This document shows positions 2,307 through 38,200 of a stretch of DNA of 64,000 nt, one piece after another (the stretch's first letter is position 1; each line of letters begins with the position of its first letter). Location: IMG/VR virus record IMGVR_UViG_3300008259_000057, positions 4,572-68,571 of that record. One strand, written 5' to 3'. The position numbers were made by a program, and so were the translations under genes. This stretch comes from a virus. The notes beneath the pieces were generated by a model. The model was not told the origin of the DNA, did not search any database, and saw only the letters and a list, made by a program, of their open reading frames with translations.

Positions 2307-2588
2307 ATGAAATATACCTGTTGTCCCGTAGTGTCGAAAGGAGGGATTCTTGTGAGTAGAGCAATACTGAAAGCTAGAATCCTCAATTCTCGTGACAAAT
2401 TTTTACTAGCTTACATTGAGAACTGCGATGATGGATGCAGCGTCAGCAATGAATACTTAGCAGAGTTATTGGATTGCTCGGAAACTCAAGTTTCAAATGC
2501 CATCCACATTCTTTCGTTTCTAAAGTTTGTCGTAGTCAGAGATGGCAAGATGTATGTCAACCCTCACTCGGAGGCATGGGGTAAATGA
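2307..2588 (+). CDS. HTH DNA-binding protein
   Basis: SNEYLAELLDCSETQVSNAI helix-turn-helix. Confidence 0.65.
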   Translation: MKYTCCPVVSKGGILVSRAILKARILNSRDKFLLAYIENCDDGCSVSNEYLAELLDCSETQVSNAIHILSFLKFVVVRDGKMYVNPHSEAWGK

Positions 2589-3433
2589 GTAAGAATATTT
2601 TTCGTCAGAAAAGAACAAGGAACTTTACCGTTGTTCCAAACGAGTTCCTGCATTCAAGAACGCTTTCGTTTAAGTCTAAAGGTATCCTGACATATCTATT
2701 GTCACTGCCTTCCGACTGGGAGCTTCATGTATCGCACTTGGCTACCATTTCAACGGATGGTCGAGATAGTGTGTATAACGGCATTCAAGAGCTTATAGAG
2801 GCTAAATACATTTGGAGAAGGCCAAGGTCAGGAATAGAGCCGGGGGGCTGGGAGTATTTCGTTTACGATGCTCCTGAATTAGATTGCCCGTTTGGCGAAA
2901 AGCCGCATACGGAAAACCCGCATACGGAAAAGCCGGATACGGAAAATCCCGAATCGGGAAAACCCGCAACTACTAAATACTATCTTAGTAAAGAAAGAAC
3001 TAAAGGAGAACAAAGGCCTGAAGAGCAAACTGCCGATAGTGAATTTGAATCCTTCTATTCTTCCTATCCTCGGAAGGTAGCCAAACCCCAAGCAAAGAAA
3101 GCGTGGAGCAAAAACAAATGTGTATTGGCAGAAGTCCTACCGGCACTAGAGCAGCACAAGAAGACTTGGAAAGACCCGCAGTTTGTTCCCTACCCTGCGA
3201 CATGGCTGAACCAACGCAGGTGGGAGGACGAGACTATTGTTAAACAAGAGTCAAGTGTGTTTACCAAACAAGAGTCACCAGTCGAGACGATCAAGAACAA
3301 CGAGTGGGTTGATGACTTCTGGACATGGCTACACCAAGAGCAAGGCCGGACTGACATAGAGCGTGACTACCTCGGAAGCGTAGAAGATCGCTGGCTAGTC
3401 GAGTTCATCAAATCCAAGGAAGATTTATTCTAA
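2585..3433 (+). CDS. phage replication initiator (lambda O-like architecture)
   Basis: N-terminal winged HTH (NFTVVPN...LSFKSKGIL.YLLS), repeat linker, C-terminal FESFYSSYPRK...KKAW...YPATWLNQRRWED. Confidence 0.8.
   Translation: MSKNIFRQKRTRNFTVVPNEFLHSRTLSFKSKGILTYLLSLPSDWELHVSHLATISTDGRDSVYNGIQELIEAKYIWRRPRSGIEPGGWEYFVYDAPELDCPFGEKPHTENPHTEKPDTENPESGKPATTKYYLSKERTKGEQRPEEQTADSEFESFYSSYPRKVAKPQAKKAWSKNKCVLAEVLPALEQHKKTWKDPQFVPYPATWLNQRRWEDETIVKQESSVFTKQESPVETIKNNEWVDDFWTWLHQEQGRTDIERDYLGSVEDRWLVEFIKSKEDLF
2896..2970. repeat. about five 15-bp direct repeats inside the initiator gene (iteron-like origin)
   Basis: GGAAAA(C/G)CCG(C/G)ATAC units at 2896, 2911, 2926, 2941, 2956. Confidence 0.65.
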
Positions 3434-4107: not shown

Positions 4108-4862
4108 AAGACACAGGACATTATTACGACATCAACGGCAAAGCAGTCTTTGAAGTTCCCAACAAAAGCAAGGGCGGTATGCGCCCGACAACGCTGCGAG
4201 ATTGCAAGGCACTCGGCCTTTTTCCGAGTGTTACGACAATCTTCAAGGCATTGGCATCGCCAGAACTAGACCGCTGGAAACAACAGCAGGTTCTGATGGC
4301 AAGCCTGACTCTGCCTCGTAACCCAGACGAGAGCGACGAGGACTACTGCTCGCGCATTATGACAGATGCTTTCAAGCAAGTAGAGCAAGCGGCAGACCTC
4401 GGCACACAGATTCACAAGGCACTAGAGATGCACTTCCAAGGCGAGGCATACGACCCTGTGATGGAAGAGTATGTCGCGCCAGTTAAGAAGTGGGTCGAGC
4501 ATAACAGGGTCAAGTTCCTTCAACACGAACTGCGATTGGTCAACCCTGAAGTCGGCTACGCGGGAACGACTGACGCTCTCATCGAGAAGGACGGAGTGCT
4601 TCATGTGCTGGACTACAAGAGCCGCAAGACCAAACCAGAATACGACATCGAGCCTTGGTCGAAAGAACCAATGCAGATCGCGGCCTATGCCAAGGTCGCA
4701 GGAGCCAAGCGTGGAGTTAATCTTTATATCTCAACAACAGAACCCGGCAGGATCGGTGAAGCGTGGTATGACGAGAAGACTCTCGACTCAAACTACGAAG
4801 CCTTCACCCATGTCTGCAAGTATTGGCAGTTCGCAAACAAATACCAACCGAAAACAAAATGA
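4104..4862 (+). CDS. PD-(D/E)XK exonuclease
   Basis: PSVTTI, GTQIH, YAGTTDAL, DYKS, QIAAY; adjacent to ERF. Confidence 0.85.
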   Translation: MKDTGHYYDINGKAVFEVPNKSKGGMRPTTLRDCKALGLFPSVTTIFKALASPELDRWKQQQVLMASLTLPRNPDESDEDYCSRIMTDAFKQVEQAADLGTQIHKALEMHFQGEAYDPVMEEYVAPVKKWVEHNRVKFLQHELRLVNPEVGYAGTTDALIEKDGVLHVLDYKSRKTKPEYDIEPWSKEPMQIAAYAKVAGAKRGVNLYISTTEPGRIGEAWYDEKTLDSNYEAFTHVCKYWQFANKYQPKTK

Positions 4863-11675: not shown

Positions 11676-12310
11676 GGTATTATTTCTGTTTTTTAGTGTG
11701 TTATTTGTTGTTTAAAAATGGGATAAATGATTTCAAGCAATGGTATTTCCATTCCCATGTTCCATCCTCGTATGTCACCAAATATTTGGTGCTGAAACCA
11801 TAGTGAATCTCTTCAACGCTTTTGATTTTCATTATTTCTGTTTTTTAGTGTGTTGTTGTTTTAGTTTGTCGATTTTCTCCTCGATTTCGCGTCCTTCGCG
11901 GATTAGTTTTCTGGCCTTTTCCAAGGTGAGATTGTGATATTCTGCAAAGAATTCGGTAGACAGGAATTCTTCAAACCAGATTCGGTAGGCGGTATGTGCG
12001 GTCATATTTTTCGGTGTGTTTTATTGTGTGAGGATGTTGATGATTTGCACGGCTAGGATTGTCAGAATCACGATTAGGGCGCAGGATCGGTGGAAGAAGG
12101 TTTCCCGTTCGCGTGTGTGTTTTCGGAGTGTTTTCATTTCTTCCCCTTATTAAATTGCCAAGCATATCCGCTAGCGTTTGCTTTTCTAATTAGCAGGAAA
12201 GCATTTTCTCGCGTGATGTTTAAATATGTGACCGATCCGCCGATTTGGTGAATGGTGAGGCTGTAGTTTTTCATGTGTTTTTTGTGTTGTGTTGTGTTGT
12301 CTGTTGGGAA

Positions 12311-12991
12311 TTAAGATTGAATCACAAAGCCGCTTGTGTCTTTTTTGGCTTTTCCTTTGGCTTTAAGCGCGACGACAACCCCCTTCGGATCGAGAAAGCG
12401 GAGGTCGCTTTGATCTCCATCGAATGTGGGGCGGTTTGCATAGGATTCTGGAATGCTTGAAAAAACCGCCGCGACATTTCCCCCACGCGCTAGAACCGCC
12501 TCGCATTCGCTTTGATTATTTTCTTTGCGTGAGAATGTGAGCGAATAATTCGCGGGAAGCTTTCCGTCCAAGAATTCCTGCATTCGGGAAAAGTTCGGAG
12601 TATAGTCATAAAAGGGAACCTCCGCGAATTCTTCCATGATTCCGAACTTGTGAAAAGGGAGATCACTAGTGCCATTCAAGCGGACACATGGGAGCATTCC
12701 AGCTTTCTTTGCTTTCTTTACTAGTGCGGCAATATCGGCGCGAAGGTCGCGAAGGAATGCTTCGCGGTCGCGCAGGAAATAGTGCGATTTTTTAAGGCGG
12801 GCATTTTTCACGGAATCAAATGCGCCGCGACCAGCGGAGAATAAGCAAGCCGCTTTGCAACCGACGGAGGCATGAGGGCAAAAATTGCGACCAGATAAAT
12901 CAGCAGGGGCAAGATAGAGGATTCCGGTCAAATATCCTTTGGCTTGGCCTTTTTTAGTTTTGGCGTTCGTGTCGATAGATAGAAGGTTCAT
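12311..12991 (-). CDS. gp88-like protein (Cys-cluster, radical-SAM-like)
   Basis: CPHASVGCKAAC, VRLNGTSD, FYDYT, Y.LTFS, GD.SDLRFLD. Confidence 0.75.
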   Translation of the reverse strand: MNLLSIDTNAKTKKGQAKGYLTGILYLAPADLSGRNFCPHASVGCKAACLFSAGRGAFDSVKNARLKKSHYFLRDREAFLRDLRADIAALVKKAKKAGMLPCVRLNGTSDLPFHKFGIMEEFAEVPFYDYTPNFSRMQEFLDGKLPANYSLTFSRKENNQSECEAVLARGGNVAAVFSSIPESYANRPTFDGDQSDLRFLDPKGVVVALKAKGKAKKDTSGFVIQS

Positions 12992-13038
12992 TTTAGTTTT
13001 AGGTTTTTCGCGGCTTTATTACCGCACCTTCAGACATA

Positions 13039-13053
13039 GCAAGACCTGTGCCA
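13039..13053 (-). promoter_or_regulatory. sigma54 promoter, consensus match
   Basis: TGGCACAGGTCTTGC, 48 bp upstream of the gp88-like start. Confidence 0.75.
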
Positions 13054-13093
13054 TGTTCGCGACACTAGGTAAAGACACGCGAAAAGATGCACA

Positions 13094-13108
13094 GCATTTT
13101 CTATGCCA
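13094..13108 (-). promoter_or_regulatory. sigma54-like promoter
   Basis: TGGCATAGAAAATGC. Confidence 0.45.
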
Positions 13109-13208
13109 TGGCATTTCTTGCCTAGTAAACGGGAAGATTTTGCCGGAGATGGGCAGGATTTGCCGGATTGGTATTGTTGAACAGGAACGCGCCAAGAGGG
13201 AATGATGT

Positions 13209-13223
13209 TGGCATAGTAGATGC
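13209..13223 (+). promoter_or_regulatory. sigma54-like promoter
   Basis: TGGCATAGTAGATGC upstream of ORF 13283. Confidence 0.55.
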
Positions 13224-13282
13224 TATGCAGAGAGGCGAGGGAAGGCACGAAGCCAGCCCGCAAACCATAACACAAAAAACCA

Positions 13283-13564
13283 ATGACACTACAAGCCACA
13301 CAAGAACCAAAGCACACAAGCGGCCCTTGGGGAATCTCACTAAATAGCAAGACGGGCGCGAAAATTATCAGCTTTAAAGAGGGGGAGATTATCGCGAAGG
13401 TTAACAAGCTCACCGATTCACGAAAACTAGAATATGATGCCCGTTTAATTTCGGCTGCGCCCGTGATGCTCGAAGCATTGCAAGCCGTAGCTGATAGCAT
13501 GATCGGAAGCGATAGCTTTATAGCTCGACAAGTGAGAGTGGCAATAGTCAAAGCCACACAATAG
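13283..13564 (+). CDS. early protein, HT.GPW...ARLI.AAP family
   Basis: KHTSGPW...DARLISAAPVMLEAL. Confidence 0.7.
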   Translation: MTLQATQEPKHTSGPWGISLNSKTGAKIISFKEGEIIAKVNKLTDSRKLEYDARLISAAPVMLEALQAVADSMIGSDSFIARQVRVAIVKATQ

Positions 13565-13589
13565 GACAAGCCACAAGCTAACAAGACAA

Positions 13590-13620
13590 GCCCCGCTTTA
13601 ATCGGCGGGGTTTTTCTTTT
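13590..13620 (+). terminator. intrinsic terminator
   Basis: CCCCGCT-TTAATC-GGCGGGG followed by T-tract. Confidence 0.75.
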
Positions 13621-14162
13621 GCCGATTTTCAGGGGAACATATCTAGGTATTCGAATATGTGGATATGTGAGAAGTGGAAAGCAAGCGCACGGAAAAGCGC
13701 ACGGGTCGGCAAGCCAGATTTTCCCATGTGGCCGTCCGCCCTCTTTCCATCAAGTGGCCTACAGCCCACACGCTCGGCGATTCTTCCCGCATCATTCCCC
13801 TTGCCAATCCATCAAACGCAATCTAGCGGCATCCTAGCGCAAAGGTTTCCCACTATCTTCTAGTGCTGTTATGAGAAGTTATATTGCAAACCAATTACTT
13901 ATAAAAGGCGAAACGCATTTAATCCTCCGGCCTCCGCATGACATAGGCTAGTGATGCGGGAGGATAGACAAGCGGTGAGGCTATACACTAGCGGGAGGGA
14001 GGGAGGGAGGGACAGACAGCGGGACGGATGAGCGGCCAGACAGACAGACCCCCGCCACGGGTAGGGGGAGGGGAGGGGACGGCGCGTGTGCATGTCGCGT
14101 AAAAGAAGACCCTAGGAAAAATATAAAAAATAAAATTATATTATCTCGCCTTCTCAAGCACT

Positions 14163-14211
14163 TACCCCTAGCTGGAATCGAACCAGCAACCTAGAGATTA
14201 GAAATCTCTCG
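14163..14211 (-). pseudogene. 3' part of interrupted tRNA-Arg(TCT)
   Basis: AGAGA-TTTCTAA-TCTCT anticodon arm, GCTGG-TTCGATT-CCAGC T arm, TAGGGGT-A acceptor strand. Confidence 0.85.
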
Positions 14212-14276
14212 ACTAGGATTTGAACCTAGACAAGAAGCTTAGAAGGCTTCTGTGCTTTCCGTTACACTATCGAGAG
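14205..14276 (-). tRNA. tRNA-Arg(TCT), intact replacement copy (72 nt, CCA not encoded)
   Basis: CTCTCGA/TCGAGAG acceptor, GTGT/GCAC D stem with A20, GAAGC-CTTCTAA-GCTTC, CTAGG-TTCAAAT-CCTAG. Confidence 0.9.
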
Positions 14277-14628
14277 ATATAACTCCTGCATGAACCTCCA
14301 TGTGGCAATTAGCGCAAAGTAATACGCATTTATCCAGTTCCCTTGTGGCTCTTTCATCCCAAGTTGTTAATTTGATTTTACTGATCGAAAAATCCTTCTT
14401 GCTTGGGTCTAAGTGATGAAACTGTAATGCGCCTTGGTATTTAGAGTATCCACAGTAACAACATTTATTTCCCTTATATTCAATCGACTTGCGCTTGAAT
14501 AAACGCTGTCTTTCTATTGTCTGATCTTTGTGACATGGCTTACAATATGGCGAGTTTCCGACTCCATTTCTTCTATCGTAAAACTCTGTTAACCCTTTCT
14601 CGGTATTGCATCTGGGGCATTTCTTCAT
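14239..14628 (-). CDS. HNH (homing) endonuclease with N-terminal Zn finger
   Basis: KKCPRC..K...FY..CKPC; CCYCGY...LQFHHLDP..K...ELDKCVLLCANCHMEVH. Confidence 0.85.
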   Translation of the reverse strand: MKKCPRCNTEKGLTEFYDRRNGVGNSPYCKPCHKDQTIERQRLFKRKSIEYKGNKCCYCGYSKYQGALQFHHLDPSKKDFSISKIKLTTWDERATRELDKCVLLCANCHMEVHAGVISLDSVTESTEAF

Positions 14629-14635
14629 GTTCAGT

Positions 14636-14663
14636 ATTATGCACATTGTGGATAATATGTCAA
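14636..14663 (-). promoter_or_regulatory. sigma70-type promoter inside the cassette (leaderless HNH)
   Basis: TTGACA-16 nt-CATAAT, 7 nt before ATG 14628. Confidence 0.65.
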
Positions 14664-14674
14664 ACTTAATCCGC

Positions 14675-14703
14675 CTCGCTCTGTCCTGTTGAGCTATAGG
14701 GGC
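14675..14703 (-). pseudogene. 5' part of interrupted tRNA-Arg(TCT)
   Basis: GCCCCTA-TA-GCTC-AACAGGACA-GAGC-GAG; GCCCCTA pairs with TAGGGGT at 14164-14170. Confidence 0.85.
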
Positions 14704-14906
14704 GTCTTTTGCGTTTATTTGCCCGTTAAACGAGTTTTCCTGCCTTACTGCGGCAATGTAGCGTTTCTCTGCTTATCTTCGCTTATACGGGCTTATACGC
14801 TAATCTAGCGGCATCTCTTGAGGAATTGATAGTAGTCCTGCTGGGTTTACCGTAAAAAGGGTAAATTGGTTTATGCTCCATCATCTCGGTTCTACTCCTC
14901 CTTTAG

Positions 14907-15113
14907 GTGTGCGACAAACATCCGTTTTTAATATCTCTGACTAGGTATGACCTCTCAAATCCCTTATATGTGTGCGACATGTTTTTGATGTTTATACCTA
15001 CTACCTCCCTACCGCCCCCCATACTGGGATATGTGTGCGCTAAAATCACTTTTTTTGTCATCTCTATGGGCAGGAGAATCTAAATCCCTATAATGTGTGC
15101 GCTGCTTTTTTGG
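14907..15113. repeat. phased GTGTGCG array (period 63/63/62 bp)
   Basis: GTGTGCG at 14907, 14970, 15033, 15095, each followed by a T-tract. Confidence 0.7.
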
Positions 15114-15120
15114 CAATTCG

Positions 15121-15450
15121 CTATTTGGATTTCTTGACCTTCTTGGCGATGTCGGACCTTGTGACGATATACGACATGTCGATCCCGCTCTTTTTCATAA
15201 ACTCTAGGATGATCTGGATGTCTACCTGCATGATTTCGTTTTCCTCGACTAGGGCATCTACCGCTTCTTCCATATCGTCTAGCTCTGCCTCTAGGTCTTC
15301 CTTCTCTTTAGCGTTTTGCTCGATTATCCCGACTAGGAACTTGCAGGCTTTGTTTACGGTATCGCAGGTTTTCTGCAAATTGAAGTTGGGCTTATCCAGA
15401 CTAGCTAGTGCTTTGTCTAGGTCTATTAGGATTTTGTCTGCTTGTGTCAT
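15121..15450 (-). CDS. hypothetical coiled-coil protein
   Basis: 109-aa ORF at the end of the operon. Confidence 0.6.
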   Translation of the reverse strand: MTQADKILIDLDKALASLDKPNFNLQKTCDTVNKACKFLVGIIEQNAKEKEDLEAELDDMEEAVDALVEENEIMQVDIQIILEFMKKSGIDMSYIVTRSDIAKKVKKSK

Positions 15451-15965
15451 TTCTTAATTCCCCAGAAATACAAATCGCATGGGTTGTTATTTGTTTTGAA
15501 CTCAAACTCGGAGAACATTTTTTCTATCGGGAGATTTTTCATAGCCAAACCTTCGTTTAGATTCATGTAGTAGTCGTTTGTAAACGGAGATGAAAAGCTA
15601 TCCGTTCTGCTTGTGCCGTGTTCAGGTCTTCCGTCGGCAGCACAAGTAAATAAGTAAAGACCTCCGCTCTTTAGGTGAATCCAAGAATTGAAGATTGTCG
15701 CTACCCAGAATTTATCATGCTCAAAACATTCTGTTGAAATCACAACATCAAACTCCTTTTCGCTTCTAAAGAAATTACCCGGACACACAATATCAACATT
15801 GCGTCCCTCCCCAATATCAATTCCTAAATAATCGCAATTGTCGAACAAGTATCTGTTGTTTCCATTAATGTCCATCGAGCCTATATCCAGAACACTACCT
15901 TCAAACAAATGCGGAAATCTATTTTTAACTGACTTGCAATATTCTTGTTGGGCGTGATGTGCCAT
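15447..15965 (-). CDS. class I SAM-dependent methyltransferase
   Basis: VLDIGS.DING, FDVVISTECFEHD, LKSGG. Confidence 0.85.
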   Translation of the reverse strand: MAHHAQQEYCKSVKNRFPHLFEGSVLDIGSMDINGNNRYLFDNCDYLGIDIGEGRNVDIVCPGNFFRSEKEFDVVISTECFEHDKFWVATIFNSWIHLKSGGLYLFTCAADGRPEHGTSRTDSFSSPFTNDYYMNLNEGLAMKNLPIEKMFSEFEFKTNNNPCDLYFWGIKK

Positions 15966-15967
15966 AT

Positions 15968-16723
15968 TTATGTGTAAAAATTAATATAATCTGGTTTTGA
16001 ATTTGCTATTTTAAGAAGCACCTCGTCACACATTGGATTAGATGCTCTCGCCAATCCTAATGGTTCTTCTCCAAATTCACAAATCAATCTTTCATATTTC
16101 GCTTTAATCATATTCGCCTCTTCAGAGTCAGACCCATAAAACCAAGGCTTTCTAGCCCAGTATTGTTTCATATTCGCAATTTCTGAATCGTGAATGATGT
16201 TCTGGCTCGCATTTAATCTAACCTCTTGACTTGGGGAAAAATTAGGAACCTCCCAAAACATATACTTTGAATACCCGGTCAGGGAATCTGTTAGATACAA
16301 TTCCGCATTAGATGATGTTGAATTGACGGCATTTATCCTGAATGCCGTGTCTTTATATTGACCAAGATTGTAATTCAAGAACTTGGACAACTCGTAAGTC
16401 ATCACAAAGTCTGCATCCCACTTGAACTTCCACTTCATGCTGCACCTAGACAAGCACCAGTTCAGATAGCTTGGAAGGCTGTGCGGCGAGCTGGAATCCG
16501 TGCATAGCATCTCATACCCGGCCCTAGACACGGGATAGTCATATTGTTCAACAATAATCAACCTGCCCTCTGATTGCAGCCGCCTTACTATCTCGGCAGA
16601 ACCATCAGTGCATTGGTGGAGTATAACAATTATCTCATGCGGGATTGTTAATAAATCCAAAGACCTAATACTCCTCTCAATCGTTGCCTCCTCATTGTGG
16701 ACCCTAACCAAGAACGAGATCAT
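15968..16723 (-). CDS. glycosyltransferase family 2
   Basis: ISFLVRVHNEE, CTDGS, KWDADF (DxD). Confidence 0.8.
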   Translation of the reverse strand: MISFLVRVHNEEATIERSIRSLDLLTIPHEIIVILHQCTDGSAEIVRRLQSEGRLIIVEQYDYPVSRAGYEMLCTDSSSPHSLPSYLNWCLSRCSMKWKFKWDADFVMTYELSKFLNYNLGQYKDTAFRINAVNSTSSNAELYLTDSLTGYSKYMFWEVPNFSPSQEVRLNASQNIIHDSEIANMKQYWARKPWFYGSDSEEANMIKAKYERLICEFGEEPLGLARASNPMCDEVLLKIANSKPDYINFYT

Positions 16724-17358
16724 AATTTAGCCCACTCCAAGATGTCATTTTTTATCACTTTATTAAATGATTCGCATCCAGATGTTGTTGACATACTTGT
16801 TTCGATTATTCGATTGGACCTCAACTTCATTACGCTAAGTCCCCGCATTTCACAGGTTCTTGCAATCCAGTTATCGCCAAACCATACCTTGATATTCTCT
16901 GGTATCTGAACCCAATTTGATTTCTTTACAAAGATCAAGCATCCCCAGCCTAGACCTATATCATTTCCGTCTTCAAGACAAATCTCGCTTGCTGCATTCC
17001 CGAAATTAAAGTGAGACATCCCTATTGCCCCGAAGTTATCCAATTTAGATACAAATGAAAACATGTCGTCTGGCTCAAAGAGTATATCGTCATTCGATAT
17101 TGCGACAAGCTCATTCCTTGCCTGATATACGCCAATATTCCACGATGGATTCACATATAGGTTCTCGTAGCTCTCGATAAGCGTCAACTTCTGTATGGTG
17201 TTTAAGTTTTCTGGCCTACTATCCTTATCGTTATCAATTACAATAACTTCATCAATAAATTCACACTTATCGTATAGATGCAAAAGATCAAGCGTGACTA
17301 TGGATTTCCACATAGTCGGAATAACAACGCTGAATTTGCGATACTCAGGACCGTTCAT
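16720..17358 (-). CDS. glycosyltransferase family 2
   Basis: FSVVIPTMW, VIVIDN, WNIG, ISNDDI. Confidence 0.8.
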   Translation of the reverse strand: MNGPEYRKFSVVIPTMWKSIVTLDLLHLYDKCEFIDEVIVIDNDKDSRPENLNTIQKLTLIESYENLYVNPSWNIGVYQARNELVAISNDDILFEPDDMFSFVSKLDNFGAIGMSHFNFGNAASEICLEDGNDIGLGWGCLIFVKKSNWVQIPENIKVWFGDNWIARTCEMRGLSVMKLRSNRIIETSMSTTSGCESFNKVIKNDILEWAKL

Positions 17359-17995
17359 TTATTCTTTTTATGAACTCAAATAGGTTCCCAATAAACTTCT
17401 TCATTCCCACATGTCCGCAAGTCATGTGAGGGTCCAGCCAAATATCAAATCCTGCCTTACGCAATTTATCGCAAAGAATAATATCTTCAGACCAAATCTC
17501 TCCATCAACAACCTTTACATCGAAAACCATCCTGTTTTCGCCTCTTTGGCACATATACGGCTCACTGGATTCCCATACAGCGTTAATCGCCTTCTTGCTT
17601 AATTTAAGAAACCCAGTTCCAATTCCCTCGCATTTGATGAGGCCGTTTTCGTGAATTGTTGTATCGCTGACCTTGGCTGCGTATAACTCGGCATTATCAG
17701 TCTTTTTTCTAGCTGTGCCGCCAACAACATCTTCTTCTCTGCGGATTAAACTAATAACCCATTCTGGATTCCACTCCATATCGGCGTCGATGAAGATCAT
17801 TGCGTCAACATCGCACTCAATCGCCATCTTTACTAGGTCATTTCTGCATCTCTGAATTAAAGCATCGTTGCCGATAAATACTGGGTAAATCCCGATCCCT
17901 CTCTGCTCTCCGAGTCTAACCGTCTCAACAACAGAAGAAACATATTCGATGTCCGCCTTGTTATACGCACATGGCGTTGCGATCATTATTTTCAT
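17345..17995 (-). CDS. GT-A fold glycosyltransferase-like protein
   Basis: IMIATP, RN.LV, FIDADM, GTGF, SED..LC, CGHVG. Confidence 0.75.
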   Translation of the reverse strand: MKIMIATPCAYNKADIEYVSSVVETVRLGEQRGIGIYPVFIGNDALIQRCRNDLVKMAIECDVDAMIFIDADMEWNPEWVISLIRREEDVVGGTARKKTDNAELYAAKVSDTTIHENGLIKCEGIGTGFLKLSKKAINAVWESSEPYMCQRGENRMVFDVKVVDGEIWSEDIILCDKLRKAGFDIWLDPHMTCGHVGMKKFIGNLFEFIKRINERS

Positions 17996-32228: not shown

Positions 32229-35200
32229 ATGGGACTTTTCGATGATCTTCTTGAAGAAGATGAATTAACTCAGCAACCCGTCCAACCTCAAAGCCAAAGC
32301 CGCCAAGGTGGACTTTTTGACGATCTTCTTGAAGAGGATGATATCGCGCCAGCAACTCAACAGCCAGCGGCACAACCTGCATATCAGTATGATCATAGTG
32401 GATTCCGCAGGAAGAAACCTGTAGCAGCAGAGCCAAAACCAGAAGAGCAAGGCATCCTTCGCCAAGTAGCAGACATCCCGCTAGGAATCGCCCGTGGTGG
32501 AGTTACAGGCATTAAGATGATGACTGACATCTTGGGGGCAGATAACGCTGTGTCGAAATCACTCGCTGGAGTTGAGGGATACATGGCTGATTTGATGTCG
32601 GCGCAAGCTAAAGAAGACCAGCAAGAGATTTCTCGCATTATGAAGGATGCCGAGGACAAGGGATTCGGCGAGCAGGTTAAGGCTGGTATCAAAGCATTCA
32701 GTATCGCCCCAGTCGATATTATGTCGCAAGCCTTAGGAACGATGGCTCCGGTTATCGCTACAGGTCTTGCAGGTAGTGCAGCCAAACTGGGTGCATTGGG
32801 TATGCGAGCAGTTCAAGCTGGCGTTGGTGCTGGCATGGGTGCTGGTATGATTAAGGGCGAGATTTACAACGAGGTTAAGAACGAGCTAGTCAACTCAGGT
32901 ATCGCAGAAGACGCAGCGGAGAAAGCTGCTGTAGATGCTCAGTCTTACGGAGGCAAGAACCTAGATCAGATTCTCCTTGGAGCAGGACTTGGCGCAGCAT
33001 CTACGCTTGGCGCTGAAGGCATCATTACCAGAATCCTTACGAAGCAAGGAACCGCTCCTGCTGCTGGTGTAGTCTCTCGCGTATTGAAGGGCGGACTTAC
33101 TGAAGCTGCCCCTGAAGCAGCGCAGGCAGCACAAGAGCAACTTGCAAAGAATGTCGCACTCCAGAGAGAAGGCTTCGATATTGATCCTTCTCGCGGAGTC
33201 GTTGCCGCTGCTACGATGGAAGCCGTTGCCGCCGCACCGCTGGGTGGTATTGCTGGTGCAGTTGAAAGACCAGCGCCTATCAAGACTCTCGCTGAAGAGA
33301 ACCTTGAGCAGACTAACGAGATCGCTAGGAAGGTTGCAGAGAACGGCGCACCGCTTACCGCATCCGCTATTCAGGACCAAGCAGCAACCAATCTCAGACA
33401 GGACGAACTAGCCAAGCAACTAGAGGCACAGCTTGAAGAGGAGCTTGTCGCAGTTAAAGAACCTACCGCCGCACCTCCAGCGATTAAGTCTAAAGAAGAA
33501 TTTACAGCTATCTACTCGCAGGTAGCCCCAGAAGAACTAGACGCAGCAGAGGCAGGCTTTACGAATACCATAGCTACCGCCGCTACAGAAGAGGCCCGTG
33601 CTAACGCACAGAACGCCCTAGAAGCGATTAAAGAGGTTAAGGCTACCGTTACACCTCCTGCGCCTACAGTAAGCGCCATTGAGAGAATTAATGAAAAAAG
33701 AATAGAACTTGATAGCCGAGCCAAGAAATTTGGATCAGATAGCGTAAGGCAATTTAACACGCAAAACGCATTAAGAGAAGATTTACCAGAAGACCAGAAT
33801 ACCCTTCTAAATGATTATGCAAATCTAAACGCAGAGATTAAAGGTCTCCCGTGGAGAGATGCTTCTCAATTATCGCCTGAACAATTTTCGATATGGGAAA
33901 AGCCAAGGTTTACAGAAAAGGCGCAACAAGAACAAGATTTAACGGACCTTGGTAAATTATCTTTAGCCTATGATTCTCGTGGAGATACCCAAAAAGCAGA
34001 AAAAACAAATAGCATAATTGAAGAAAGTAAACGCAAATCTGATTGGACTATAGATTTATGGGCTGAAAGATTTGACGAATCAAAAACTCAAGAAGAAATC
34101 AATGAAATCAATTCAGAAAATATTGATTGGAATGACAGTGTTGATTCTGTTTTAGAAATAATTAAACAAAGAAAAAAGCCAGTTACACCCGCAGTTCCGA
34201 CTGCACAACCACCAATAACAGATGCCACTCAAGAAATCATCCAGCCAGAAGGCGTTCGTCAAGAACCTCAAGACAGAGTTGAAGGCGAAACGCCCGATGA
34301 AACAATCGCTCGCAATCGCATATTCGGTGCAGCGCGAGGCCAAGAAGAAGGGCAAGTAGCCCCGACTCCAGAACCTATTATCTCGGAAATTCCTGCAACT
34401 TCCGAGTTAGTAGGTGCAGAACCAACGCAACCTACTATCAGAGAAGTTCCTGAGATTTCTCCAATCGTAGGTGCGGAGCCTGCCGCTATTGTTGAACAAG
34501 AGCCTGTTGCGCCAACCGAAGCAGCCACCGCCCCTGTAACGACTCCTCCTGTAACAGAAGCCGTTACACCAGAGGTTGCGCCTGCAAATCCTCCCAAGGT
34601 AAATGAGGTTATTGCTGTAGATAGAAAAAATAATACAGAGTTCGCTTTGGTAAAAGGATTGCTTCCAGAAAGACCAGATATGTTCTCAATCGGTATTCGA
34701 TTGATTGGGTCAACTCAACCATTTGAAAGCGGTGGATATGGACACAATACAAACAAAGATCGCATCATGCAGCGATTCTTTGAAAAAGAAAGAACAAGAT
34801 TGCAGGACATTGAAGTTAAAAATCAATACTTCAAAAACATTCTTTCTGAAGAGGAAGCCAAAGTTTCTGAAATAGAAACCCAAAAAGCAGCAGATAAAAT
34901 TGCTCAAGAGGAACAACAGCGTGTATTCAATGAGCAAAAATCAAGCTACGAAGAAGCCATATCTAAAGTAAAACTTCCTACTGGTAAGTCCGAAACAATG
35001 CGATTTACCGCGCCCGATGGATCAGAGCAGGCGTTAGATTCTACACGATATGGAAACATTGGAATACGAAAGGTTACATCTGGAAAAAAACCTCTCTATA
35101 ATGTCGATCATTGGCACTCTGGGTTAAGAATTACACAAGTTGCTTCATTGTCTGAAGCTAAAAAATTAGCCCAAGCAATCATTGCATCAGGAGCAGATAT

Positions 35201-38200
35201 ATCTTCAAAAGAAATTAAAGAATCTGAACTTGAAAAGATGCGTCCTGTTGTGAGGTATTTTTTAAGGGGCGAATCAGTCCCACAACTGCCCACCCCCGCA
35301 GTATCGGAAACAATAACACCCGCCGCAGAACCCGAAGGTAAAGCAGTAACTCCAGCGCAAGAAGATGTGAAGGTTAGCAGGTATCGTAAATTCCTTGGAG
35401 AAAGTGCGCCACAAGCAATATCTGAAGCAAAAAATGCTCTATCTACATTCAAGACTACAATGCTTGGCAAGCGCGGTGATAGCCCATTTCAAGCAGAACC
35501 AAGATTGCGTGAACTTAAAAATGTAATTTCGCTATTCGTTGCAAATAGATTGAATGTAACAAATCAAAACGCAGATCAAATTGCGGAGCAAATCATTCTT
35601 GGTAAGCCAAACATAGTTGATAAGGTAACGGAGCTAAAGCCTATCAAGGCTAAAGAGCTTGATGATATTGAAGCAAATCGCTCTGCAATCATGCGATTCG
35701 GATATGAGTTAGATGACAAGAAAACATATCGTCATCCGCGAGAAGCTGAAGTAATCGCAGCAACACCCGCCGCAGAACCAGCAGGTATCTCCGTAGGCAA
35801 CCGCATCAAGCTAGGCAAGTCCCCGCAGACATACACTATCGAAGAAGTCATCCCGCAGTCCGCAACAGAGCGTGAGCTAGGCGAGCAGTATTACTCTGTA
35901 AAGAACGAGAGGACAGGCGAGACGCAGGTTGTCGAGGCGAGAGATTTGCGACAGGTAAAGGGCAAGGGAGCTAGGAAGATTGCTGCCGCTACTCGTAACG
36001 AAGAGTATATGCGCCTCGCTCAAGACCCAGAGGCTAACCGCGAGCAGTTGCAGAGGATGGTGGATGAGGCGGCGAAGAATGCGGGGTATACTGTTGATGG
36101 GTGGCATCGAACGGATGCCGATTTCACAATCTTCAAACCATCTCCTGATTCCCAAATGATTTACTTTGGGTTGGACGAAAAGGGAGTTGATGCTTTCTTG
36201 GAGCGATACGCTGGGCGGAAGGTTAAGGCATATCTGCGTTCAGCAAAACCGCTAAACACAAAAGACACGCCGATTCCTTACCGTGAGGCAGATAGGAATA
36301 GACCTCTGGCAAATACCGATTACGACTCTGTTTTTGTCAGAGATGAAACTGGGTTAAGTATCGCTGTAAAAGACCCATCCCAAATCAAATCCGCCGACCC
36401 CGTAACATACGATGACGAAGGCAACATCATTCCGCTTGAAGAAAGATTCCAGCCAACATCTCCAGACATTCGCCGCCAAGCAATCGACACTACTCCAGAA
36501 GGCATCTTAATCACGCCTCCAGACCAGCAATACACTTTCAATGAAGTCTTCGATGTCGCATACGATATGTTCGGCGGGGAAATCCCAGAAGGCTTTACAA
36601 TCGTCAACGACAGCAAGGATAAAGACTTTGAGTTCAAGGCAGCGTATATCCCAGAGTCGGGAGAGATCATCGTCAACCTCGCTTACCTGAATAAGAACGA
36701 CGACATCCGCGATACGATTACTCACGAACTCGGCCACTACATCTACGGCGATCCAAAGTTCCGCGCAGCATTCGATCAGTTTATTGCATCGCTCTCTCCA
36801 GAGGCTAGAGCCGACTTGGATGCGTATGTCGATACGGCATACAACAAAGAGACAGGCGAAATCCGCTTGGAGGAGAAGATGGTCAGAGCTTTCGTGGATC
36901 AGTTCATTAACGAAGAGCAGGCTCCCGCTTGGCGCAGTATGCTGGACGCTATTAAGCGATTCCTGAACAAGCTAGGCTTTAAGTTCAACATCAGCGATAG
37001 AGACGCTATCTCGGTCTTTACCGCAGCACTTGACCGATACAAGGCAGGAGAGGCTATCTCGCGTGAAGGCGGGGCTAGAAAGATAATCGACGATCTGACT
37101 GCGATGGATGGAGAGTATCTTGCAGCGGTAGAGGAAGCCAAAAAGACTGGCGACCTTACCAAGGTGCAGAGGATGGTGGATGAGGCGGCGAAGACGGCAA
37201 TGCCCAAGTCAGTAGTTACTGAACCAATGATTTCCTCAAAGGAGAAGCTGGCAGATAAACCGCTTTTAAAGGTTTACCACGGAACAGATGCCCAGTTTAA
37301 TGTGTTTGAGAGGGGCAGAAAAGGTGTAACAGACTTTGGGTTCCTTGGGGTTATAGAAGGTGAGAGGAACGGCATTTTCTTTGCTGAGAATAAAGACTTT
37401 GCGAAGACTTTTGCAAAGTCCAAGGGTGGGGATCGTGTTGTTCCAGCATTCCTAAACATCGCCATGCCTTTCGAGCTTCAAGATGCCCAAAGCATCATTG
37501 AATCTCGTGAACTTGGGAGTGAGTTTAGTATTGACTACAACATGGCTCGCTGGTTTTTCAGCAGGTCAAACAAATGGGAGGCTTTTGACGACGCTGACGG
37601 AAAAGCATTTGTTGATTGGCTTGAATCAAAGGGGTTTGATGGAGCGCGCATACAGGAAGAAGGAATTGGTTTGCCAGATGAGCCTACACAAGATGTGTGG
37701 GTTGCTCTCAGCCCATTCCAAATAAAATCCGCAGACCCTGTAACCTTTGATGACGCAGGCAATGTAATCCCTCTCTCGCAGAGGTTCCGCCCAACCTCGC
37801 CTGATATTCGCAGGATGGCAGTGGAGCCAGCACCTAAACGCCGCAAGGAGCAGGTCGGTGGAGCAGAGCGTGAAGAGACAAGATACATCACGACACCTAA
37901 AGGTATCTTGAGCATGAACACCGATGTTCTGCGAGAGAAGTTCTTCGACGGAACTAGCGTATCTCCTGAGAAGACAACGCAGGCGTGGGGATATATTTCA
38001 AGACTGCTAGACATTAAGAGCGGTAACGCGAATGAGCTTGCTGGAGAGATTAACGATACGGTTGACGCTGACCTTTTAGCAAAACGAGAGGCAGCAATAG
38101 CTGCTGGCGAGAAGGTTGATCCAGAAGAAGATGTTAGCAAGCGAATTGGCGCAGCGATGTTTAGCGTTGAGTTGATGAACTACGCAGGCAGATTGGCAGA

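Follow-up and report, generated by a model that had tools for sequence, protein, structure and literature searches.

Positions 14163 to 14703 of a 64,000-nucleotide (nt) stretch of viral DNA from IMG/VR record IMGVR_UViG_3300008259_000057 (positions 4,572 to 68,571 of that record; hereafter the window) hold an arginine transfer RNA (tRNA) gene split by an insert that carries an HNH endonuclease gene and a second arginine tRNA gene. All of these features lie on the minus strand, and every feature that an earlier sequence-only reading had listed was recovered there, coordinates included. The 5' fragment of the old, resident tRNA-Arg(UCU) (14675..14703) comprises the 5' acceptor strand, the D arm, and nt 26 to 28, and the 3' fragment (14163..14211) comprises nt 25 to 73, i.e., the anticodon arm, variable loop, T arm, 3' acceptor strand, and discriminator. 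Joining the 29-nt and 49-nt halves by their coordinates in a script gave a canonical 74-nt tRNA-Arg(tct) according to ARAGORN. In an nhmmer search with a tRNA-Arg profile, the 5' fragment matched model positions 1 to 26 weakly and the 3' fragment matched positions 27 to 73 with an E value of 2.5e-7. In the native sequence, ARAGORN and Rfam detected the inner tRNA and not the split one. The 467-bp insertion (14208..14674, counting one CGAG copy) follows nt 28 of the old tRNA, at the junction of the D stem and the anticodon stem, and has a G+C content of 39.4%, compared to 45.7% for the window. It is bordered by a 4-bp direct repeat, CGAG, whose left copy (14675..14678, minus strand) is old-tRNA nt 25 to 28 and whose right copy (14208..14211, minus strand) is also nt 67 to 70 of the new tRNA, in its 3' acceptor strand. 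This duplication sits in the middle of the tRNA and not at its 3' end.

The complete replacement tRNA-Arg(UCU) within the insert (14205..14276, minus strand) scored 64 bits against Rfam RF00005 (E value, 1.1e-12; threshold, 29) and was also called by ARAGORN, for which it was the sole tRNA gene in the 68.6-kb genome. Its acceptor is CUCUCGA/UCGAGAG with discriminator A in the Rfam register, and ARAGORN placed it at 14277..14204 with an 8-bp acceptor. Arginine tRNA identity features are A20, C35, and a purine at position 73; the inner tRNA has an A after GG in its D loop (AACGGAAA), the anticodon UCU, and discriminator A. AGA is the commonest arginine codon in the phage (239 of 852). The D stem is GUGU/GCAC, and across the proposed cut region the sequence is unlike that of the old tRNA. 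Nucleotides A71, G72, and A73 (14207 to 14205) are unambiguously old-tRNA nt 29 to 31, the CGAG at 14211 to 14208 could belong to insert or target, and the T preceding it belongs to the insert. The sequence-only reading had taken the new 3' acceptor strand to be CGAGAGA, the same DNA as part of the old tRNA, with the target completing the replacement; the shared DNA and the completion stand, and the register was off by one relative to that of Rfam. Old-tRNA nt 27 to 31 are thus shared with the new acceptor stem, and because they sit there, a single transcript can form either tRNA but not both. When IMG/VR was searched for exact copies of a 33-nt stretch from the new tRNA, 0 were found, and blastn of 13600 to 15500 against INPHARED returned only an 83% match to the new tRNA (the tRNA-Arg of Vibrio phage helene 12B3) and a 51-nt match to the HNH gene.

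The HNH gene (14239..14628, minus strand) encodes 129 amino acids plus a stop, and the 5' half of the new tRNA shares its sequence with this stop and the 12 sense codons before it. The stop codon TAA (14241 to 14239) is nt 36 to 38 of the inner tRNA and falls in the anticodon loop, just as the sequence-only reading had it. The best PHROG match was phrog_2255, "HNH endonuclease" (E value, 1.8e-36), and nine more families matched, seven of them annotated as HNH endonuclease; an NCBIfam search with the protein gave no match. Residues C56, C59, H71, H72, C105, N107, H109, and H113 are invariant among 18 homologues, with C108 nearly so, and we take the invariant residues to be the H-N-H catalytic and Cys4 zinc-site positions. 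An AlphaFold2 model had a predicted local distance difference test score of 87.7 and was confident up to the last nine residues, with the tRNA-encoded tail at about 50; its top Foldseek matches in the PDB were HNH nucleases, though weak ones (E value of ≥0.06; Cap5, Gme HNH, Cas9 HNH, PacI, and McrA). Within the insert, a consensus scan picked out a candidate sigma-70-like promoter, TTGACA-16-CATAAT (14636..14663, minus strand), by its sequence match alone, with 11 of 12 positions matching. Only 7 nt separate the −10 hexamer from the HNH ATG, and no Shine-Dalgarno sequence precedes that ATG, which suggests that the gene would be leaderless.

Together, the 390-bp open reading frame (ORF) and the 72-bp tRNA, which share 38 nt, leave about 46 nt of the 467 bp. 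There is no room for a ribozyme, because only these 46 or so nt are neither ORF nor tRNA, and an Rfam search at an E value of ≤1 across positions 12000 to 17000 found no RF00028 or other family besides the inner tRNA. No integrase or recombinase was found in the insert, whose contents are the HNH ORF and the tRNA only. The 46-nt promoter leader, compared by blastn-short to all collected loci, gave no match. The consensus scan, PHROG, and Rfam with ARAGORN thereby agree with the original description of about 467 bp holding a promoter-like site, an HNH gene, and a second complete tRNA-Arg(UCU).

Uninterrupted versions of the resident gene were found by searching IMG/VR with the exact 29-nt 5' piece, which matched two other viral contigs, L006 and L007. 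Each encodes an intact tRNA (Rfam tRNA score, 70.8 bits) that is identical at 74 of 74 positions to the joined halves, including the entire 3' fragment. The two halves do not form one tRNA by chance, because this intact gene exists in both contigs. The empty-site allele that the sequence-only reading had suggested seeking in relatives is thus present, and its claim that two minus-strand pieces sharing CGAG are a single tRNA-Arg(UCU) is confirmed by these alleles together with the ARAGORN call on the join. Both contigs are syntenic with the window and mostly 91 to 95% identical to it; blastn alignments break exactly at the insert, which they lack, and CGAG aligns on both sides.

Filled and empty alleles also occur together in the same samples, as seen in Logan contigs from runs of other studies aligned to positions 13700 to 15200. 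In run X2, a 523-nt contig reproduced 14182 to 14704 with 0 differences at a depth of 86 (the filled allele), and a joint from 14207 to 14675 skipped exactly 467 bp, with CGAG on both sides, at a depth of 271 (the empty allele). Run X7, from a different study than X2, contained the filled allele at a depth of 6.2 and the empty allele, with the same 467-bp skip, at a depth of 15. Filled-allele contigs end 26 to 30 nt into the flanks, as a k=31 graph bubble predicts; this falls short of the 31-nt bridging rule, and the support for the filled junctions is exact continuity rather than a long bridge. Raw-read run X21 contained no reads on the stretch, and no RNA run was found that covers it. The presence-absence polymorphism between empty and filled alleles is precise and genuine, at a conserved target.

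A third tRNA-Arg(UCU) allele (14191 to 14678) was present in X8 at a depth of 4.68, with loose ends in X2 and X7. It replaces a 15-nt block and keeps the rest of the gene, giving the anticodon stem ACGCU/AGCGU instead of AGAGA/UCUCU; four stem pairs are altered on both sides, as is nt 32. This allele may be a nuclease-resistant or defence-resistant variant. Upstream of the tRNA, a 252-nt presence-absence polymorphism (14862 to 15115) appeared as joints in X2 (depth, 141.6) and X7 (depth, 96.4), and X8 had a 262-nt replacement at 14871 to 15134; the polymorphic stretch covers a 52-amino-acid ORF (14903 to 15061, minus strand). Just downstream of the tRNA is a C-rich, low-complexity tract (window, 13960 to 14100; L006, 4480 to 4680; L007, 1700 to 1560) of CCCTCCC- and GTCT/CTGT-type short repeats, which is hypervariable among relatives and where contigs break.

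The link between nuclease and replacement tRNA appears to extend beyond the window. HNH proteins 98, 95, and 92% identical to that of the window, found in a large protein database, share an identical tRNA-encoded C-terminal tail, and a 68% identical protein of the same length (P0004) has a diverged version of it, so that the linkage of homologues to the replacement tRNA, proposed as a check by the sequence-only reading, is supported by the retained tails. The near-identical HNH proteins with the tRNA-encoded tail lie on other contigs, one of 69,081 bp. In the tree, the 68 to 98% identical homologues are the nearest clade to the window HNH (Shimodaira-Hasegawa-like approximate likelihood ratio test values of 96, starred, and 90). 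Scanning IMG/VR and the JGI metagenomes with HNH peptides returned nothing above 61% identity, and the closest match in a scan with P0004 was 54%. Judged by the 68 to 98% identical homologues, the cassette existed before it came to occupy the present gene copy. The old-tRNA halves carry 0 changes in 78 nt, while the nearby flanks differ from relatives and are mosaic: by ungapped counts, the upstream 100 nt match L006 at 100/100 and L007 at 92/100, and the downstream 40 nt match L007 at 40/40 and L006 at 27/40. Undecayed halves within mosaic flanks would fit a recent arrival or recombination at the site, without proving homing.

Relatives of the HNH protein were collected in two rounds. The first set contained 84 loci from IMG/VR and metagenomes, 43 to 61% identical to the window HNH; for the second sets, 80 of more than 534 viral loci and 80 of more than 548 genome loci were examined, and 122 of these 160 were of the full-length type. 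ARAGORN proved too permissive for in silico joins, calling tRNAs in wrong ones, and a strict cloverleaf split-tRNA detector was written, which found the old tRNA-Arg alone when run on the window's own genome. By this measure, the HNH gene lay inside a split tRNA at 46 of the 84 first-set loci, nearly always a tRNA-Thr(UGU) interrupted after U33, and at 31 of the 80 genome-assembly loci, mostly in Patescibacteria and again chiefly in tRNA-Thr(UGU). Group I introns (RF00028) were confirmed by Rfam in 7 of 10 submitted first-set loci, and the same tool detected relatives' introns at 47.8 to 86.6 bits even when they contained internal ORFs. The intronic HNH proteins (43 to 59% identical) align only to residues ~39 to 123 and group apart in the tree, in a starred clade comprising 62 rows; the window HNH falls outside this clade, beside free-standing forms that adjoin tRNAs.

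Among the 122 full-length-type loci, an intact tRNA-Arg(tct) lay within 150 nt of the HNH ORF in 52, in four geometries, and another five had a tRNA-Arg(UCU) whose anticodon loop is interrupted, for a total of 57 in which the HNH gene adjoins this tRNA. Other subgroups adjoin tRNA-Met(cat) (16 loci), tRNA-Asn(gtt) (12 loci), or tRNA-Ile(tat) (7 loci). HNH ORFs often extend from a few to ~40 nt into the neighbouring tRNA, and at several loci a divergent tRNA begins 4 to 7 nt away from the HNH ATG. That the stop codon falls in the anticodon loop is therefore best seen as a by-product of tight packing, because relatives' ORFs so commonly overlap or adjoin tRNAs. Homologues in cultured phages include FelixO1 ORF45 (NP_944866.1; 47% identical), located within a tRNA array, and a 52.5% identical protein in PAK_P2.

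Several arrangements within this family are recorded here in their own right. Five loci (L098, L101, L105, L108, and L172) have a free-standing HNH gene beside a tRNA-Arg(UCU), and L002 (2625 to 3483) has one beside a tRNA-Thr; in all six, an ORF-less insert of ~205 to 225 nt interrupts the anticodon loop of the tRNA. Of the three loci submitted to Rfam, L098 and L002 were confirmed to have RF00028, which was not detected in L108. The layout is reminiscent of models of cooperation between an intron and an endonuclease next to it. The many Patescibacterial loci (L011 to L076 and L183 to L247) involve tRNA-Thr(UGU), and in a few cases CGU, with an acceptor that starts U1-A72; their introns after U33 measure ~530 to 650 nt with an HNH ORF and ~225 to 250 nt without one. 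In L242 (2298 to 2955) and L223, both Bacteroidota, the HNH ORF is antisense in a ~585-nt anticodon-loop insert of a class-I tRNA read as GCU, and RF00028 scored 47.8 bits in L242, slightly below the gathering threshold. Immediately following the HNH genes in L008 (3323 to 3409), L009 (983 to 1066), and several Solirubrobacterales loci are 84- to 89-nt tRNAs called Asn(GUU), which are longer than tRNA-Asn usually is and two of which were scored by Rfam at ~51 bits each.

Nesting of an HNH gene and an intact tRNA-Arg inside a broken one was also found outside the window. A tRNA-Arg profile search for orphan halves flagged L103, a 258-kb jumbo-phage contig (pair L103/L252). Along one strand, a tRNA-Arg 5' fragment (model positions 2 to 29) comes first, followed by a small ORF and then an intact tRNA-Arg(tct); next is an HNH gene preceded by a Shine-Dalgarno sequence, and a 3' fragment (26 to 73) comes last. 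The HNH protein (117 amino acids) is 48% identical to that of the window, and the stop codon of its gene falls within the 3' fragment, in the anticodon loop. Both fragments share AGCA (nt 26 to 29), a 4-nt duplication one nt from that of the window, the insert is 649 bp, and joining the fragments yields a tRNA-Arg(tct) fold that contains a single A.G mismatch. A scan with the L103 HNH returned 10 loci, two of which have the same gene order: L254 (a 488-kb contig; HNH 57% identical), picked up by a relaxed detector, and L253 (a 100-kb contig; HNH 68% identical), where the old tRNA is decayed, with complementary acceptor strands and about nt 24 to 35 missing. The tRNA precedes the HNH gene in these three jumbo-phage contigs and follows it in the window. 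No credible nonintron nesting besides L103 was found in the first 244 loci. Five "nested" detector hits (L156, L159, L169, L180, and L221) were rejected as false pairings between paralogous acceptor stems within dense tRNA arrays, which Rfam showed for L156, and orphan 3' fragments beside HNH genes in L090 and L181 were rejected because they are not complementary to the 5' strand of the neighbouring intact tRNA. L103 also has a third tRNA-Arg(UCU)-like gene (2261 to 2202, minus strand) that shares the acceptor stem but lacks a D arm and whose variable region measures 20 nt, beside a second HNH gene of 170 amino acids (2345 to 2857, plus strand), and both L103 and L253 have a conserved anticodon-loop-like remnant between the intact tRNA and the HNH gene.

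The interpretation that we consider likely is that the insert is an intron-less homing cassette that entered the phage's tRNA-Arg(UCU) gene, targets the D-stem/anticodon-stem junction, and carries a divergent tRNA-Arg as a substitute. Empty alleles, junctions, shared tails, and the lack of a ribozyme uphold the central proposal of the sequence-only reading, a splicing-free mobile HNH element that breaks a tRNA and supplies a replacement completed by the target. Its further suggestion, that the replacement is a payment for the damage, fits less well, as the tRNA does not look made for that purpose: since the HNH group habitually adjoins tRNA-Arg(UCU) (57 of 122 loci), the cassette is most simply a nuclease together with its usual neighbour. 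During co-infection, the HNH enzyme would cut intact tRNA-Arg(UCU) DNA around nt 25 to 29, probably with a 4-nt stagger, and repair of the break by copying the cassette from a filled genome would convert empty genomes. First entry into the lineage may have been an illegitimate, microhomology-guided capture, in which the break end CGAGAGA paired with the identical 7 nt of the donor tRNA's 3' acceptor strand. The old tRNA would be dead, because its nt 27 to 31 serve the new acceptor stem. The inner tRNA would escape the nuclease through a D stem and an anticodon stem that differ across the site, and would supply the AGA decoding needed by the phage. RNase P maturation of the tRNA 5' end would strip the stop codon from the HNH mRNA, limiting nuclease expression.

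Several observations weigh against this interpretation. The Pfam HNH model PF01844 scored 18.1 bits, below its cutoff of 21.4, Foldseek found nothing at an E value of ≤0.001 for the AlphaFold2 model, and a sequence search found no solved structure related to the protein. The window HNH lacks the ~50-amino-acid N-terminal helix-turn-helix-like extension of many relatives; such short forms are common nonetheless (21 loci). A donor, i.e., a close relative of the HNH gene or the new tRNA, was sought in IMG/VR, JGI metagenomes, and INPHARED and none was found, and the 68 to 98% identical homologues are known here from protein sequences rather than from their surrounding DNA. Coexisting alleles would also be expected if a single old insertion had undergone lineage sorting. 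Cases of nesting are few (the window and three contigs, versus 57 loci where an HNH gene merely adjoins the tRNA), and the duplicated stretch in L254 is ~9 nt with 3 differences rather than a clean 4 nt. Finally, cleavage of the empty allele, the geometry of the cut, and the immunity of the new tRNA are all inferred.

Some of these points would suit a one-off relic instead, in which illegitimate recombination at a random break once brought in a piece of another phage's tRNA array (an HNH gene and the tRNA-Arg next to it), the HNH protein is nontargeting or inactive, and the polymorphism is inherited, being tolerated since the cargo tRNA substitutes for the broken one. Nonhomologous junctions with 4 to 7 nt of microhomology, the missing donor, the short HNH form, and filled alleles whose proteins have diverged by as much as 8%, as expected of an old insertion, all agree with such a history. 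However, the insertion hit the very gene type that this HNH group adjoins in 57 of 122 loci, and in an unrelated contig an HNH and tRNA-Arg insert lies no more than one nt from the corresponding position and has a 4-nt duplication too. The catalytic and zinc-binding columns are intact, and the old halves are undecayed, with 0 changes in 78 nt, beside flanks 8 to 30% different from relatives. On balance, a relic is unlikely. There is a distinctly smaller chance that the cassette is kept mainly for its cargo, with the new tRNA body evading a host defence that cleaves tRNA-Arg and the HNH gene serving as a vehicle. Phage tRNAs are reported to evade anticodon nucleases via anticodon-loop changes (PMC10264068, PMC11555353, and PMC11464382), and three anticodon arms (the old one, the block-substituted one with four compensated pairs, and that of the cassette) occur at one locus in the same populations. 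Against this idea, the anticodon loop is very similar in all three alleles, stem variation around nt 28 to 31 is equally expected from resistance to the HNH nuclease itself, and the phage is uncultured.

The two remaining alternatives concern whether the insert is removed from RNA or was ever in the genome. If it were an intron or otherwise processed from RNA, the old tRNA would be restored and both tRNAs made; insertion within a tRNA and the group I introns in tRNA genes that encode about half of the first relative set are what give this idea its interest. It is nevertheless highly improbable, given that no RF00028 appears in 12000 to 17000 at an E value of ≤1 with the tool that found relatives' introns, that only about 46 nt of the 467 bp lie outside the ORF and tRNA, that the site is nt 28/29 and not the anticodon loop, and that old-tRNA nt 27 to 31 within the new acceptor stem make the two tRNAs mutually exclusive on one transcript. 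Bacteria are not known to use bulge-helix-bulge splicing. An assembly chimera of two strains or phages, a danger that the sequence-only reading had itself raised, deserves attention in a metagenomic contig whose polymorphic region adjoins low-complexity sequence. Its probability is practically negligible: contigs from other studies' runs (X2 and X7) reproduce both junctions with 0 differences by exact continuity and with coexisting alleles, and near-identical HNH proteins with the tRNA-encoded tail are on other contigs, including the one of 69,081 bp.

The proposed homing cassette resembles several known systems in part. Free-standing homing endonucleases encoded within the tRNA gene clusters of phages include the T5 F-Tfl enzymes. 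Another such enzyme, the GIY-YIG endonuclease SegB of T4, is reported to recognise tRNA-gene sequence and to spread itself with surrounding tRNA genes (PMC2330249). The genes for SegB and the HNH genes of the FelixO1 tRNA array are, like that of the window, embedded among tRNA genes, and a FelixO1 HNH ORF overlaps a tRNA gene by 7 nt, a similarly tight packing. Those genes, however, lie between intact tRNA genes and move via homologous flanks, whereas the window has a nuclease and one tRNA inside a destroyed tRNA gene, with nonhomologous junctions. Group I introns occur in cyanobacterial tRNA-Leu and Azoarcus tRNA-Ile, and I-HmuI is an intron-encoded HNH homing endonuclease. Group I introns in bacterial tRNA anticodon loops are treated in PMC13168695. 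Intron-encoded HNH enzymes share the protein family and the kind of target, a tRNA gene, with the window, which differs in having no ribozyme, in its site at nt 28/29, and in restoring function by a second gene rather than by splicing. Fractured genes, whose product is rebuilt by split inteins (PMC2677866), are likewise phage genes broken in two by the gene for a homing-type endonuclease that brings control elements of its own; in the window, the old product is not rebuilt and a substitute gene is carried.

In T-even phages, a resistant allele replaces a sensitive one by co-conversion between homologous genomes. Intron-less homing and marker exclusion are the terms used for the T4 seg and mob genes in PMC2988022 and PMC2790892. 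There, as in the window, an endonuclease gene travels with a neighbouring, presumably resistant allele of its own target, but in the window neither copy is lost and one lies within the other. Integrase-driven genomic islands and prophages use tRNA genes as insertion sites and restore the 3' end of the gene. As in such elements, target and insert each supply part of a functional tRNA at the junction; unlike them, the window shows neither an integrase nor att logic, its 467-bp insert holding an HNH gene and a tRNA only, and the rebuilt tRNA is a different gene that takes its last 3 to 7 nt from the middle of the target. A free-standing endonuclease beside an intact target describes 52 of 122 relatives but not the window, where the resident gene is interrupted. 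A nested nuclease and replacement tRNA is a variant within free-standing homing endonuclease biology, and no description of an endonuclease and tRNA cassette nested in a tRNA gene was found in the literature searched, within the terms used.

Elsewhere in the phage, positions 15447 to 17995 contain ~2.5 kb of methyltransferase- and glycosyltransferase-like genes, where L006 (2928 to 3622) and L007 (2344 to 3312) have only 0.7 to 1.0 kb. A 2,946-amino-acid ORF (32229 to 41069, plus strand) has an ADP-ribosyltransferase domain, ART-PolyVal, at residues 1679 to 1836 (E value, 2.6e-24) and is polyvalent-protein-like. An N4-like phage, considered on account of this ORF, was rejected, as the ORF carries ART-PolyVal and no virion RNA polymerase signature. 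Most large ORFs of the phage had no PHROG or Pfam match.

A broader and more tentative proposal, for which the odds fall somewhat short of even, is that a clade of HNH nucleases may have specialised on tRNA-Arg(UCU) genes and move by "break and replace," each with its own nuclease-immune tRNA-Arg. If so, a cassette could enter unrelated phages or bacteria without flanking homology or a ribozyme, because its target is nearly universal and it brings the function along. The 4-nt duplications would mark a staggered cut at tRNA nt 25 to 29, and expression of the nuclease would be tied to tRNA processing by the ORF-tRNA overlap. Invasion after invasion, phage tRNA-Arg genes would turn over and orphan tRNA halves would be left behind; the invasions would also select compensated anticodon-stem variants as resistant alleles, of which the third allele could be an example.

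Homing genes in essential genes have been thought limited to three ways of persisting: within introns or inteins, beside the target, or, in fractured genes, through split inteins. This locus would represent a fourth solution, in which the target is destroyed and a divergent copy is delivered within a few hundred base pairs, with the target donating the last nucleotides. One HNH family occurs in three forms, encoded in introns, placed beside its target, or nested along with a replacement, and so provides a natural series for the interconversion of intron-borne and free-standing endonucleases. The empty, filled, and stem-substituted alleles are ready substrates that make the locus directly testable, and the family points to enzymes that may recognise one defined tRNA gene. 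Such cassettes would offer an explanation for the rapid turnover and orphan fragments of phage tRNA genes, and would tie the dynamics of selfish elements to the interest in phage tRNAs as counter-defence.

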